Assembly (NCBI GenBank): GCA_051294375.1
Contig: CM119267.1
Coordinates: forward strand, 9,139,709 to 9,203,708
Length of the DNA stretch: 64,000 nucleotides
Origin: Paraspadella gotoi
Lineage: Eukaryota > Animalia > Chaetognatha
Direction of reading: 5' to 3'
The notes beneath the pieces are model-generated. The model ran no database searches. It was not told the origin of the DNA and was given only the letters and a program-made list of their open reading frames with translations. The position numbers were made by a program, and so were the translations under genes. Shown here one piece after another: positions 137 through 63,959 of this stretch. Each line of letters opens with the position of its first letter. Positions within the stretch are counted from its first letter, which is position 1.

Positions 137-1291
137 GTTGACTTTGCCAAGGGGGACAGGAAGACTCCTTACGAAATGAAGGCCCAAGAATTGGAAGAGG
201 AATCCCCCGGACTCGATGGACGTAGAAGTTCCCGCCATCGTCACCATCATCATCACCATCATCGTCATGGTCACGATCATCGCCATCATCATCATGAACA
301 TCATCGCTCGCGCAGTGACGATCGGATCGATCGTAATCGTCATCGTCATCACAGCCACGGTCGTCATCATCACCATCACCACAACCACCATCGCAGCAGT
401 GATACTCCTGAACGCACCGACCACCATCATCACCATCATCACCACCGCGACGGAATTGATGGCGACGAAAGTCGCCGCCGTTCACGCGATCAACGACGTC
501 GTCGTCGCAGTCAGCGTCGTCGTTCGACTCGCCCTCACTCTCAGAGCTCGTCCGAGAAGGAGGAAGATGAGAGAACTGATCGTAGGCGGAGGAAGGCGAG
601 CTCGAGCTCTTCCTCGGAAGAGAAAGGTAAAGTGATTCCTTGAGAAAGGGGCCTCCCGGTTCCCGCTCAATTTTGATAAGGGAATCGGAAATTTCGGAAA
701 GCTCAAGTAGAAAGATTTCGAAAAAATGCCCGGGCTTAAAAGGGATAGAAAAGCTAACGATATCGTCAAAAAGGTGCCCATCTTAACGATCAAAAAAAGG
801 GGAAAAAAAGACGCCAAGACCTAATGGTTGCAAAAGAATAAAGATTCGTTTGATCTAAAGAGTAAATTAAAGGTTTCCTAAGGAAGCGCGGGTTGACATT
901 GAACAGGTAGACGGATGATGGCATTGTGGGACAAATCGACGGATACTTTCTCCCTTGTCGAATCACATCCTGATACTTGTGATATCTTTCTTTTTTTTTT
1001 CCGATAGAAAACGGGAGGAGTCCGTCGTCGGGGTCATTTGATGACCAGAAAAGGGGATCTCGCGGGTTTCGACGCCCCAAAAGAAATCTCTCCTTGACAC
1101 CGCCTAGAATTTCGCAATCCTCTTCGTTCTCCTGCGACAAATGGCGCCGTTCTTCCTCCGACGCGGCCAAGTCTCATTCCGGGTCTCAGCGAAGCGTGGA
1201 GAGTGGCCTCGACGAAGGAGCCAGTCTCAACGGAAACGTCGGCGACGCAGCATCGAGAGAGCCCACTCCCCCCGGCGATTCTCCGCCTTGA
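137..1291 (+). CDS. SRSF10: SRSF10/SRSF12-like SR splicing factor, 3' exons (137-626 and 1008-1291); RRM exons lie upstream of the window
   Basis: After acceptor tttcaacgcag(136) the frame reads VDFAKGDRKTPYEMKAQE, matching the end of the SRSF10 RRM (IQFAQGDRKTPNQMKAKE), followed by an RS/His-rich domain. A phase-1 donor AAAG|gtaaag (627) joins in frame to acceptor ttttttccgatag(1007), giving ENGRSPSSGS...GDSPP*. Without splicing the frame stops at 643. Confidence 0.75.
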
Positions 1292-1500
1292 ACGTGGACG
1301 AGAATTTTCTTTAGCTTTAATGAATAATGATTTTTCCTTGTTTTCCTTTTACCCGACGCTACGCAGAAAATATTTTTGCGTTCAGCACTCTTCCCCTCTA
1401 TTTAGTTTCGTTTCGCGTTTTGTTCGGTTCTTTTAGCGATTCTTTTTTCTTTTATATTAAGTAGCTCTCCAATGATCGCGAATCTTGTCGCCAATAGTCT

Positions 1501-2139
1501 ATGGCAGCGGCGACTAAACAGAGCGAGAAGAAACAAGGAAGTTCGCCCGGGCCAAATCCTTTAAAACTGAGCAAGAGTGATTGTGTCTACACAAAATGCT
1601 ACTGCGAAGAAAACATTTGGAAACTTTGCGAGCTCGTTCGAAACTCGCGAGACGCGGCGCTCTTAAAATCGTGCAATGCTGTTTTCATCTCCAACAAAAC
1701 GCGGTCGATCCCAATCTGGCATCAACAATCCAGTGCGAATCCTCCCGTCCAACCGGTAGTATGGGATTACCACGTTATACTGGTGTTTGCCGATGGTCGG
1801 AATTCCTGCGTCTACGACTTGGACTCGGTGTTGCCCTTCCCAACCCCTTTCCCCGACTATCTTGCTCTCGGATTTAGAGACGACGATCTCATGAAACCAA
1901 ATTACAAACGAGTTTTTCGCGTTATCGAAGCGACAGAGTACTTGGACAAATTTGCCTCCGATCGATCGCACATGAAAAGGAAAGACGGAACGTTTAAAAT
2001 GCCTCCTCCAAGCTATCCCTGCTTGGCGGCGAGAGACGGGAATAAAAACAACATTCAGGAATTTATCAACATGGAAACCAACTTTTGCGGAAAAGTGATG
2101 GATATTCGCGATTTTGGCAGCCATTTTTTAGTTGCTTAA
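1501..2139 (+). CDS. NTAQ1: Protein N-terminal glutamine amidohydrolase (NTAQ1/WDYHV1), intronless
   Basis: Motifs YTKCYCEENIWKLC, WDYHVI, VYDLDSVLPFP and FASDRSHM. Confidence 0.95.
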   Translation: MAAATKQSEKKQGSSPGPNPLKLSKSDCVYTKCYCEENIWKLCELVRNSRDAALLKSCNAVFISNKTRSIPIWHQQSSANPPVQPVVWDYHVILVFADGRNSCVYDLDSVLPFPTPFPDYLALGFRDDDLMKPNYKRVFRVIEATEYLDKFASDRSHMKRKDGTFKMPPPSYPCLAARDGNKNNIQEFINMETNFCGKVMDIRDFGSHFLVA

Positions 2140-2194
2140 CTGTTTTTGTTTTTATTTTTTTAGGGGTTATTCTTGACCAAGGAAACTTTCTAAT

Positions 2195-61200: not shown

Positions 61201-62274
61201 TACGCACTTATTTCAATTCGTCATCACGAAGACGTTATTTTAAAACAACTCGCGTTGAAAGTACCGCACAAGCTAACCAATCCTAAATACACCGATCCAC
61301 ATGTCAAGACAAATCTGTTGCTGCAAGCTCATCTTTCCAGAATGCAGCTTTCGGCTGAGCTGCAGTCTGACACTGAGGATATTTTAGGAAAAGCTATCAG
61401 GCTTATTCAGGTAAGATGTCTTTTAATGTATGTTATTATAAATCATATTGTAAGAATATTCATTCTTTAGGCTTGCGTCGATGTTCTTTCTTCAAATGGG
61501 TGGCTATCCCCGGCTCTGGCTGCGATGGAACTGGCGCAGATGGTGACGCAAGGAATGTGGAGCAAAGACTCTTACCTTAAGCAACTGCCTCATTTCACCC
61601 CCGAATTAATTGCCAAATGCGGCGAGAAGGGCGTGGAGACGGTCTTCGACATCATGGAAATGGAAGACGACGACCGTAACTCGTTACTCTCCTTTACCGA
61701 CTCCCAGATGGCCGACGTGGCTCGATTCTGTAACAGATACCCTAACATCGAGTTAACCTACGAAGTCCAGGTAGAGATCGATTTTTCCCCCCGATAATAT
61801 TAGCCGTTAGCTGTACTTACTGTAAATATTTTAGGAGAAAGATTCTTTGAGTTCCGGAAGCCCAGTCAACGTTATGGTGACCTTAGAAAGAGAAGACGAA
61901 GTCACGGGCCCCGTCATTGCTCCCTTTTACCCCCAAAAGCGGGAAGAGGGCTGGTGGGTCGTCATCGGCAATCCGAAATCCAATTCTCTCATTTCCATAA
62001 AAAGGCTTACTCTCTCCCAAAAAGCCAAGGTAATTATTTATCTGAAAATTCGGATGACTTTTTAGTATTATATGCATTATGCATATACTTTAATTAATTG
62101 ATTTTGCCCTAGGTGAAACTGGATTTTGTAGCTCCTTCTCCTGGGCATCACTCGTACCAATTGTACTTTATGAGTGATTCGTATCTCGGCTGCGATCAGG
62201 AATACAAGTTCGCCGTCGATATTAAAGAGCCCCAGAGCGGATCGGACCGTGATTCCGGTTCAGAGTCTGATTAA
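52262..62274 (+). CDS. SNRNP200: U5 snRNP 200-kDa helicase BRR2 (many exons)
   Basis: [61 protein letters not shown], a second cassette APTGSGKT and DELHL, and terminal [15 protein letters not shown]. Confidence 0.97.
59941..60240 (+). mobile_element. HINE-like element in an SNRNP200 intron (same family as 27510-27954)
   Basis: ttttta-TCTCGCCAGACG ... CGTCTGGCGAGA-taactatactttaagatttt. Confidence 0.7.
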
Positions 62275-62699
62275 AAAGGGATAGTGTAAAAATGACTTTA
62301 TGGAGGAACACGACTTTTTCGTAAGACTCGAAGCCATAGTACTCCTTGTGAATTCCTGAATCAGGATCTTTTCCTGGAATTGTTTCAAAGACGTTCATAC
62401 TTTTTGTTTCATTCCTAAATTGTATCATATCATCTGTACCCCGAAAAGGGTAAATTCCTCACCGTTAATGTTTTTAATTTGAAAACAATTTTGTTCACCA
62501 TACAGAATAAAATAGCGTTTCGTTTTCTCTTATTTATCGTCAGCTTTAATTCCTATATTAGTCTATTATCATTTGCGTTGCAGTCGCCAGAAGATAGTTA
62601 CGACCTTACTAGTTATTGTAGTCCGTCAACTCTCATGTTAGATTCAACCGCGTTTTTCCGACATAAATTCTGGGATTTCCCAGTCTTGACAAAACAGTA

Positions 62700-63959
62700 A
62701 TGGCGGCGGAATTGCTGAGTAGAGCTTCGACTCTGGACCAGCAGTTGGAGCGCGAGATAAAGCGCGTTGACGAGTCGATGTCTATTCTCAATGTTCGCCT
62801 CAAAGAAGCTCTCTCCTCTGTGGAGGCCGCCGCCGAGGAAGCCGAGCGTCGCCTCAAATCCCTCGCTGCCGAACAAATTGAAAATCTCAAGTCCTTGCAC
62901 CATAACAAATTGACGATGCTGGTTGAAAAATTAAATGAATTGCGGACGTCCAAATGTGTGTTAACTACCCGAAGCGCCGAGTGTCGCTTGATTTCCGAAA
63001 GTGAAAGCTGCTCCTCCCGAACAAAGGCGAATTCTCTTTGGGAGTTGGAATACTTTATGAAACAGTTAGATTTGGAATCGACGCAAGATCTCATCGGCAG
63101 CATGTTTCAGCTTTCTTACGACCGGTCAGAATCCGCTTTCCGCAGCTTGGGCCGTATCCAAGGGGGTTACTTGACCCTGAAACACGTTATTATCGCCACT
63201 GATCCGTCAGATATATTGCGCCCGGACAAAGACGGTTGGGTCCCGTTCGTTCTCACTCTTGCCACTGTCGATTTCATGAAGCGCTACTTCGCCCTGCGCC
63301 ACGTCAGATGGTACGACTGCGTTATGTCCGAAGCACGGAAATATTTAAGAATTCGAGTCACCGACCCTAAGTCTAATGATACGGAAGTTCGCGTTTGGTA
63401 CGAACCAAACGCGTCCAATCCCGCGCAAGTCAACGTTGTGGCGCGCTTCCTTCACTCGAGAGATGGCGTTTACGCCATACGAGTTTTTCTAAACGAAGAC
63501 TTGTTGGGCGACGCCCCGCTTCACGTCGCCGTAGTTGCGGGATGTAGCCAGGAAGCGGCGACCCCGCGACGATCGGCGTCAGTTAGTTCCAGTTCTGCCA
63601 CCCGAGAGGCCTTTCGCGACAGCGCGACCAAAGCCATATTTTCTCATCTCGGTCTTAAAAACTCGAGTGTCAAAAACGTCGAGACTCAAACGGATAGTTT
63701 GCTGCTCACAAGATCGAGATCGAAGTCGGTATCGTCGAACTCTTTCGATTCTAATTCTCGTGAGGCTTTTCGAGACAAAGCGAGGAAAGCTATCGTCTCT
63801 CACCTCGAAATAAAAAGCTCCACTTTCAATAACGCCGCCACTCAAACCAACAGGATATTGCTGGGGCTGTCTGCCGACGAGGACCTTTCTGATATCTGTA
63901 CGTCTCAGCTGGAGGGGATATCAAATAAAGAAATCGAGGGTACAACCATTCCATGTTGA
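62700..63959 (+). CDS. Uncharacterised coiled-coil + filamin/Ig-like protein (TRIM-like BBC-filamin module) with a duplicated C-terminal TQT repeat
   Basis: 419-aa exon-like ORF with an N-terminal heptad region. IRVTDP...VVARFLHSRDGVYAIRVFLNEDLLGDAPLHVAV resembles a filamin repeat, and there are two REAFRD..KAI.SHL..K.S...N..TQT units. Confidence 0.6.
   Translation: MAAELLSRASTLDQQLEREIKRVDESMSILNVRLKEALSSVEAAAEEAERRLKSLAAEQIENLKSLHHNKLTMLVEKLNELRTSKCVLTTRSAECRLISESESCSSRTKANSLWELEYFMKQLDLESTQDLIGSMFQLSYDRSESAFRSLGRIQGGYLTLKHVIIATDPSDILRPDKDGWVPFVLTLATVDFMKRYFALRHVRWYDCVMSEARKYLRIRVTDPKSNDTEVRVWYEPNASNPAQVNVVARFLHSRDGVYAIRVFLNEDLLGDAPLHVAVVAGCSQEAATPRRSASVSSSSATREAFRDSATKAIFSHLGLKNSSVKNVETQTDSLLLTRSRSKSVSSNSFDSNSREAFRDKARKAIVSHLEIKSSTFNNAATQTNRILLGLSADEDLSDICTSQLEGISNKEIEGTTIPC

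Follow-up and report, generated by a model that had tools for sequence, protein, structure and literature searches.

The question raised by this locus, a 64-kb stretch of DNA that is very likely from a chaetognath (the window, taken at its full length), is whether its packed, same-strand housekeeping genes are transcribed in groups whose messages are afterwards separated by spliced leader (SL) trans-splicing. Our answer, held with considerable confidence, is that the packed genes are likely operons, with the end of an RNA leader, TTGTTTAAA, present at one splice acceptor. SL trans-splicing, which had been proposed in an original prediction made from the bare sequence, is observed at one site, position 11301, where the leader end is joined to the acceptor at 11300; operons at this locus are likely. 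Exon models were made for the window genes, which were labelled from Pfam, PDB and homolog searches; ortholog names other than PSMD8, DOHH and KRI1 are read off Pfam domains.

The RNA evidence derives from the public run X1 of the same organism, which represents one study. Its contigs were compared with positions 1-16700 of the window, and 111 contigs fit; runs X2 and X3, with only 2 and 1 matched records, respectively, were not used. The RNA nature of X1 was inferred from its spliced joints: 11 of the 13 listed joints are of the GT..AG type, ten matching modelled introns and one corresponding to 13116-13204. Depth in the bin 558-1114 is 29.4, compared with an exon-only expectation of 29.4, and intron 627-1007 has no cover, indicating that X1 behaves as spliced RNA. 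Contig 4 of this run opens with nine non-genomic letters, TTGTTTAAA, at 11301, right behind the acceptor tttaatgcAG (G at 11300). The features concerned are the following.

11286..11300, plus strand, trans-splice acceptor of the sugar-transporter gene, with non-genomic TTGTTTAAA joined at 11301
11345..12835, plus strand, SLC2A-like sugar transporter with a single coding exon (PF00083)

Within the window, the nine letters occur once on the plus strand (34719) and are followed by GT on neither strand. The probability of such a leader-end match arising by chance is about 3e-5 per loose contig end and 2e-3 over 67 ends, the position at an AG being left uncounted. A non-genomic leader at a 3' splice site, one feature expected of an SL operon, was found at one site in one contig. 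Separately, in the trans-spliced 5' untranslated region (UTR), 23 nt upstream of where SLC2A starts, an out-of-frame ATG (11322) opens an overlapping upstream open reading frame of about 70 codons.

In all nine nucleotides, the leader end matches the chaetognath leader. In the available part of PMC2481426, Table 3 gives SL forms 2, 3 and 4 as all ending in TTGTTTAAA; the nine-nt tail is common to these forms and so does not discriminate between leader types. A full-text literature search for this sequence in a leader or trans-splicing context gave only that paper. The suggestion in the original prediction that the DNA might come from a lineage with no operons on record is therefore not upheld: the leader is that of chaetognaths, whose operons were published in PMC2481426 (2008) and, genome-wide, in PMC12460157 (2025).

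Relatives of two window proteins were examined as well. The DOHH protein has 15 relatives at 65-73% identity, compared with about 55-61% for named animals. In a quick tree of 49 rows chosen from 120 listed matches, the window sequence and these relatives form a 16-row clade that leaves out all 22 named animals (Shimodaira-Hasegawa-like approximate likelihood ratio test, SH-aLRT, 100). The closest relative, P0001 (73%), which falls within this clade, is encoded by contig L001, and the L001 mRNA opens with the final 16 nt of SL form 2 (16 of 16), 27 nt before the ATG. Among the 80 metagenome loci scanned, L001 is the only one carrying TTGTTTAAA within its first 60 nt and the sole one belonging to the close DOHH clade; none of them is a relative's genomic contig. 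For KRI1, the two best matches reach 51% and 47%, while named animals mostly show 32-42% over long alignments. As a side observation, the DOHH transcript in L001 ends (1080-1099) without an AATAAA in its 3' UTR, in a segment loosely like the acceptor tract of the NDUFS8-like gene of the window. Judged by sequence resemblance, this may hint at conserved gene order.

Exon models and Pfam place 19 of the 20 genes on the plus strand and one on the minus strand, in agreement with the count made earlier (two-sided binomial p=4e-5, the genes being taken as independent). The exception is a gene located inside RNGTT intron 36562-39119.

36675..38561, minus strand, C2H2 zinc-finger gene of one exon, lying antisense within RNGTT (PF13465)

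A separate promoter on the minus strand must serve this gene, which sits inside the candidate operon. Stop-to-ATG gaps were exactly as originally predicted, that is 209, 55, 154, 118, 396, 31 and 86 nt in a first block (block 1) and 90, 152, 191, 222, 153, 228, 558 and 425 nt from KRI1 onward (block 2). The remaining three of the 18 gaps are long. One, of 1,430 nt (GPD2 to SLC2A), lies inside block 1 and was absent from the earlier list, and those of 3,736 and 1,795 nt flank a PCRF/coiled-coil gene. In total, 12 of the 18 gaps measure 250 nt or less, the short spacing expected of SL trans-spliced operons, and spacers of 31-90 nt are too short to accommodate both a 3' UTR and a promoter. AATAAA is present in five of the six long spacers, compared with 2.5 expected (p=0.04). 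A depletion of this signal in the short spacers was considered and rejected, as its occurrence in 1 of 12 (1.06 expected) is not below chance. An Rfam search of the window gave no matches.

Within block 1, the left-edge gene through GPD2 likely make up unit 1a, of five or more genes.

137..1291, plus strand, 3' part of an Arg/Ser/His-rich gene (open reading frame; the gene start lies left of the window)
1501..2139, plus strand, NTAQ1, N-terminal glutamine amidase (PF09764)
2195..3190, plus strand, PSMD8/Rpn12 (PDB match, E 7e-40; acceptor G at 2163)
3345..7135, plus strand, MAN2C1-like GH38 alpha-mannosidase (PF01074/PF07748)
7190..7198, plus strand, orphan acceptor ahead of GPD2, on whose G the upstream RNA contig terminates
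7254..9914, plus strand, GPD2-like mitochondrial glycerol-3-phosphate dehydrogenase (PF16901 and EF-hands)
9915..11300, plus strand, long spacer between GPD2 and SLC2A, with AATAAA at 10024, 10182 and 10421 and an RNA contig extending to 10305

Intron 627-1007 of the left-edge gene, intron 2858-2931 of PSMD8 and five of the six GPD2 introns are spliced in the RNA. No Pfam or PDB match was obtained for the left-edge gene, which may be SRSF10/12-like by general resemblance. In the GPD2-SLC2A spacer, a short segment (10259-10322) has AG and GT flanks, and at 10247 and 10272 the RNA contigs carry variant letters; the segment is possibly a repeat or a stray exon.

Downstream of this spacer, SLC2A, MOCS2B, AASDHPPT and DUF885 likely form unit 1b.

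13116..13204, plus strand, cis intron in the SLC2A-MOCS2B spacer, which is the 5' UTR intron of MOCS2B (RNA joint 13115>13205, GT..AG)
13232..13763, plus strand, MOCS2B/MoaE (PF02391; intron spliced in RNA)
13795..14763, plus strand, AASDHPPT phosphopantetheinyl transferase (PF22624/PF01648; acceptor G at 13782)
14850..20541, plus strand, DUF885 protein (PF05960; acceptor G at 14846; middle exon boundaries uncertain)

By its Pfam name DUF885 is a mostly bacterial family; here it is an intron-bearing animal gene closing unit 1b.

The boundary after GPD2 is placed there because of the 1,430-nt gap with its three AATAAA signals. Block 1 could instead be a single nine-gene operon with a 1.4-kb intercistronic stretch after GPD2, and its uniform strand, the RNA contig reaching 10305 and the leader at 11301, which would fit intercistronic resolution, are all compatible with this. 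We nevertheless regard such an operon as unlikely, since the other gaps of the block measure 31-396 nt and this one carries the three signals; moreover, none of the listed contigs links 10305 with 11300, although that by itself is no proof. The original prediction of two operons of about nine genes each is supported only in part: the first run contains this gap, and the second, in block 2, is a candidate that lies beyond the RNA comparison.

Turning to the splice acceptors ahead of the ATGs, all nine that had been quoted earlier are present, with their G at 2163, 7198, 13782, 14846, 24274, 28248, 30516, 31620 and 42147. An acceptor matrix trained on the 52 cis introns of the window was used to find the best site within 80 nt before the ATG of 18 genes. 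The mean score is 5.9, compared with 3.8+-1.1 in shuffled windows, and a fraction of 0.0055 of 2000 shuffles reaches the observed mean; reverse complements score 2.6, as do 135 non-coding windows (Mann-Whitney p=0.003). The threshold is passed by 11 of the 18 genes and by 30% of control windows. Acceptor enrichment before ATGs is therefore real but moderate. Whether these acceptors are unpaired, on the other hand, is not safely judged from sequence, because the AG at 13204, immediately ahead of the MOCS2B start codon, pairs in RNA with donor 13116, a real donor that the donor matrix ranks outside the top two of its spacer. The sequence-based donor scan was accordingly rejected as proof of unpaired acceptors. 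In the shortest spacers, there is no donor 45 nt or more upstream of the acceptor.

Co-transcription of neighbouring genes, as opposed to trans-splicing itself, has indirect support from spliced contigs running across spacers, but contigs do not demonstrate single molecules; the interpretation given in the original prediction is, overall, partly supported. Contig 2 would cover NTAQ1-PSMD8-MAN2C1 and contig 4 would cover SLC2A-MOCS2B-AASDHPPT, to judge from arithmetic on record lengths rather than from displayed pieces. The contig piece 2929-3606 spans the PSMD8-MAN2C1 spacer, and the piece 11301-13115 extends beyond the SLC2A stop. Contig 2 terminates on the acceptor G at 7198; together with the end at 1457, upstream contig ends thus lie 0-7 nt from the next acceptor. 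Contig 5 starts at 14847, the first base after the AG at 14846, which would fit an assembly graph where a leader with a final A and a spacer with a final G converge. Run X1 also contains 0.86 of the sampled words of 39001-48900. As evidence of spacer transcription this share was rejected as too weak, lying between the exon-only (0.81) and exon-plus-spacer (0.88) values.

Several points weigh against the operon reading. Only one of the eight displayed loose ends (67 in total) is leader-like, and it comes from a single contig in a single study. The leader sought in RNA was found, but its acceptor, 11300, is not among the nine that the original prediction had listed. As it lies behind the 1,430-nt gap, the leader at 11301 could reflect trans-splicing of a first gene with an outron; a leader site after a long gap by itself shows trans-splicing, not operon resolution. 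A contig over two genes does not prove a single transcript, as overlapping UTRs could bridge them. The RNA comparison stops at 16700, so that five of the nine quoted acceptors and all of block 2 fall outside it, and in seven of the 18 genes the 80 nt next to the ATG contain no strong acceptor. For genes behind a short spacer, the signs of a leader are indirect, namely the contig start at 14847 and the leader on the DOHH mRNA in L001. Finally, the DOHH grouping comes from a quick tree, and no named chaetognath protein was found among the DOHH or KRI1 matches, the lineage resting on the leader sequence.

Some of these points would also suit genes that are SL trans-spliced but monocistronic, each driven by a short promoter of its own, located within or close to the spacer or at the upstream gene's 3' end, the leader replacing a short outron. 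The sole leader seen does sit after a long spacer, contigs do not prove single transcripts, and, in the available text of PMC12460157, about half of P. gotoi genes are trans-spliced while only 18% are operonic. Against this, gaps of 31, 55, 86 and 90 nt are too small for a 3' UTR plus a promoter, spliced contigs cross spacers although an intron has no cover, and upstream contigs end next to the following acceptor (7198, 1457), rendering such an arrangement improbable in our view. That the genome is simply compact, its 5' UTR introns being cis-spliced in the ordinary way and trans-splicing being absent, is scarcely credible: one spacer does hold a cis intron (13116-13204) and acceptor-like sites are common in AT-rich DNA, as the control windows illustrate, but an AG is followed in RNA by non-genomic letters that match a published SL, the DOHH mRNA of a relative (L001) bears the same leader, and the shortest spacers have no suitably distant donor.

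Operons resolved by trans-splicing remain our preferred reading. In block 2, KRI1 through glycogen synthase, seven genes separated by gaps of 90-228 nt, likely constitute unit 2, which possibly extends to SNRNP200 and the last gene and would then have nine genes over 35.7 kb.

28254..30440, plus strand, KRI1, head gene of block 2 (PF12936/PF05178; acceptor G at 28248)
30531..31475, plus strand, DOHH (homolog search; acceptor G at 30516)
31628..32322, plus strand, 4Fe-4S subunit gene, presumably NDUFS8-like (open reading frame, weak Fer4 match; acceptor G at 31620)
32514..39942, plus strand, RNGTT mRNA capping enzyme (PF01331/PF03919)
40165..42018, plus strand, CCCH zinc-finger protein, which we take to be ZC3H3-like (PF25542)
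42172..48178, plus strand, RRP5/PDCD11 (S1 and HAT repeats, 1842-aa model; acceptor G at 42147)
48407..51703, plus strand, glycogen synthase (PF05693)
52262..62274, plus strand, helicase with 28 exons, presumably SNRNP200/Brr2 (2143-aa model; DEAD domain)
62700..63959, plus strand, coiled-coil protein of 419 aa, last gene of the window (open reading frame)

In RNGTT, the exon with the KADG motif and the exons after it keep the reading frame to either side of the nested gene; a further small intron was noticed by eye near 36200-36262, and the full model was not closed computationally. For the last gene, no Pfam match was found, its protein-atlas similarity to TRIM45/filamin clusters (score 0.88) is weak, and its C-terminal part apparently contains an internal duplication. 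A U-rich tract plus AG at 63975-63987, 28 nt past the last stop, may mark a tenth gene's acceptor, the gene lying beyond the window.

Between the two blocks lies the PCRF gene, which is probably a unit alone.

24278..26458, plus strand, isolated gene with a PCRF domain and a coiled coil (PF03462; acceptor G at 24274)

It is a single-exon gene of 726 aa in which a release-factor PCRF domain is joined to a long coiled coil, possibly a lineage-specific fusion or a degenerate mitochondrial release factor. Elsewhere in the window, an element of about 950 nt is present in two near-identical copies (18001-18950 and 33918-34865), each intronic and with ends matching by eye; this pair is probably a non-autonomous DNA transposon.

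As to how the units would be expressed, each unit would be read from a promoter at its head into a polycistronic pre-mRNA. The spliceosome would then attach a capped SL exon of about 36 nt, which a distant SL RNA gene supplies, to the U-rich/AG acceptor ahead of every downstream ATG, and the products would be capped single-gene mRNAs. In this scheme we infer the promoter positions, single precursor molecules, leader use at other acceptors and the unit boundaries. The upstream 3' end might even be made by the trans-splicing cut itself, a hypothesis suggested by one contig end. The combined proposal that block 2 is one unit of at least nine genes and at least 35.7 kb, tolerating a nested antisense gene, and that upstream 3' ends are set at the downstream acceptor in the manner of Ciona, without AATAAA, is put forward tentatively, and we consider it possible rather than probable. 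If true, block 2 equals or exceeds the longest published chaetognath operon. Junctions 7198, 14846 and 30516 bear on how upstream 3' ends form in chaetognaths.

Compared with known systems, the window fits the published description of P. gotoi operons and is a new instance of a described system, not a new lineage. In the accessible part of PMC12460157, 10,197 of 21,072 P. gotoi genes are trans-spliced and 18% of genes are in operons, which were defined by distances below 250 bp and have no operon-specific leader; the longest has nine genes (ribosomal proteins, ubiquitin and subunits of the proteasome). For Spadella cephaloptera, the available text of PMC2481426 describes an RPS14-PCNA operon with three bases between the poly(A) site and the acceptor. 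Among the listed papers on chaetognath operons and leaders that were viewed, there was no further chaetognath genome paper. As far as these partial sources go, the window shares with P. gotoi and Spadella operons the same leader 3' end, same-strand housekeeping genes less than 250 nt apart, an unrelated metabolic and RNA-processing content, and, for its candidate units, lengths up to nine genes; like RPS14-PCNA, it has an upstream 3' end beside a downstream acceptor. In the operons of Ciona intestinalis, neighbours are directly abutted, and here contig 2 ends on the acceptor G; Ciona belongs to another phylum, however, and its largest operon has six genes, according to the part of PMC2760879 at hand. 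Nematode SL2 operons are likewise polycistronic housekeeping clusters resolved by trans-splicing, but they use an operon-specific SL2 (PMC7986045, in the portion available), whereas no such leader is described for P. gotoi in the corresponding portion of PMC12460157. The remaining novelty lies in a possible operon of at least nine genes with a nested antisense gene and in 3'-end formation at the downstream acceptor. As an example of how chaetognath operons are laid out, the locus provides a leader junction from public RNA together with a candidate operon reaching the size limit published so far: with seven to nine genes, block 2 would equal the published nine-gene maximum with a different content and, in contrast to the longest P. 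gotoi operon as described in the accessible text, it has no ribosomal-protein gene, spans 35.7 kb and contains a nested antisense gene.

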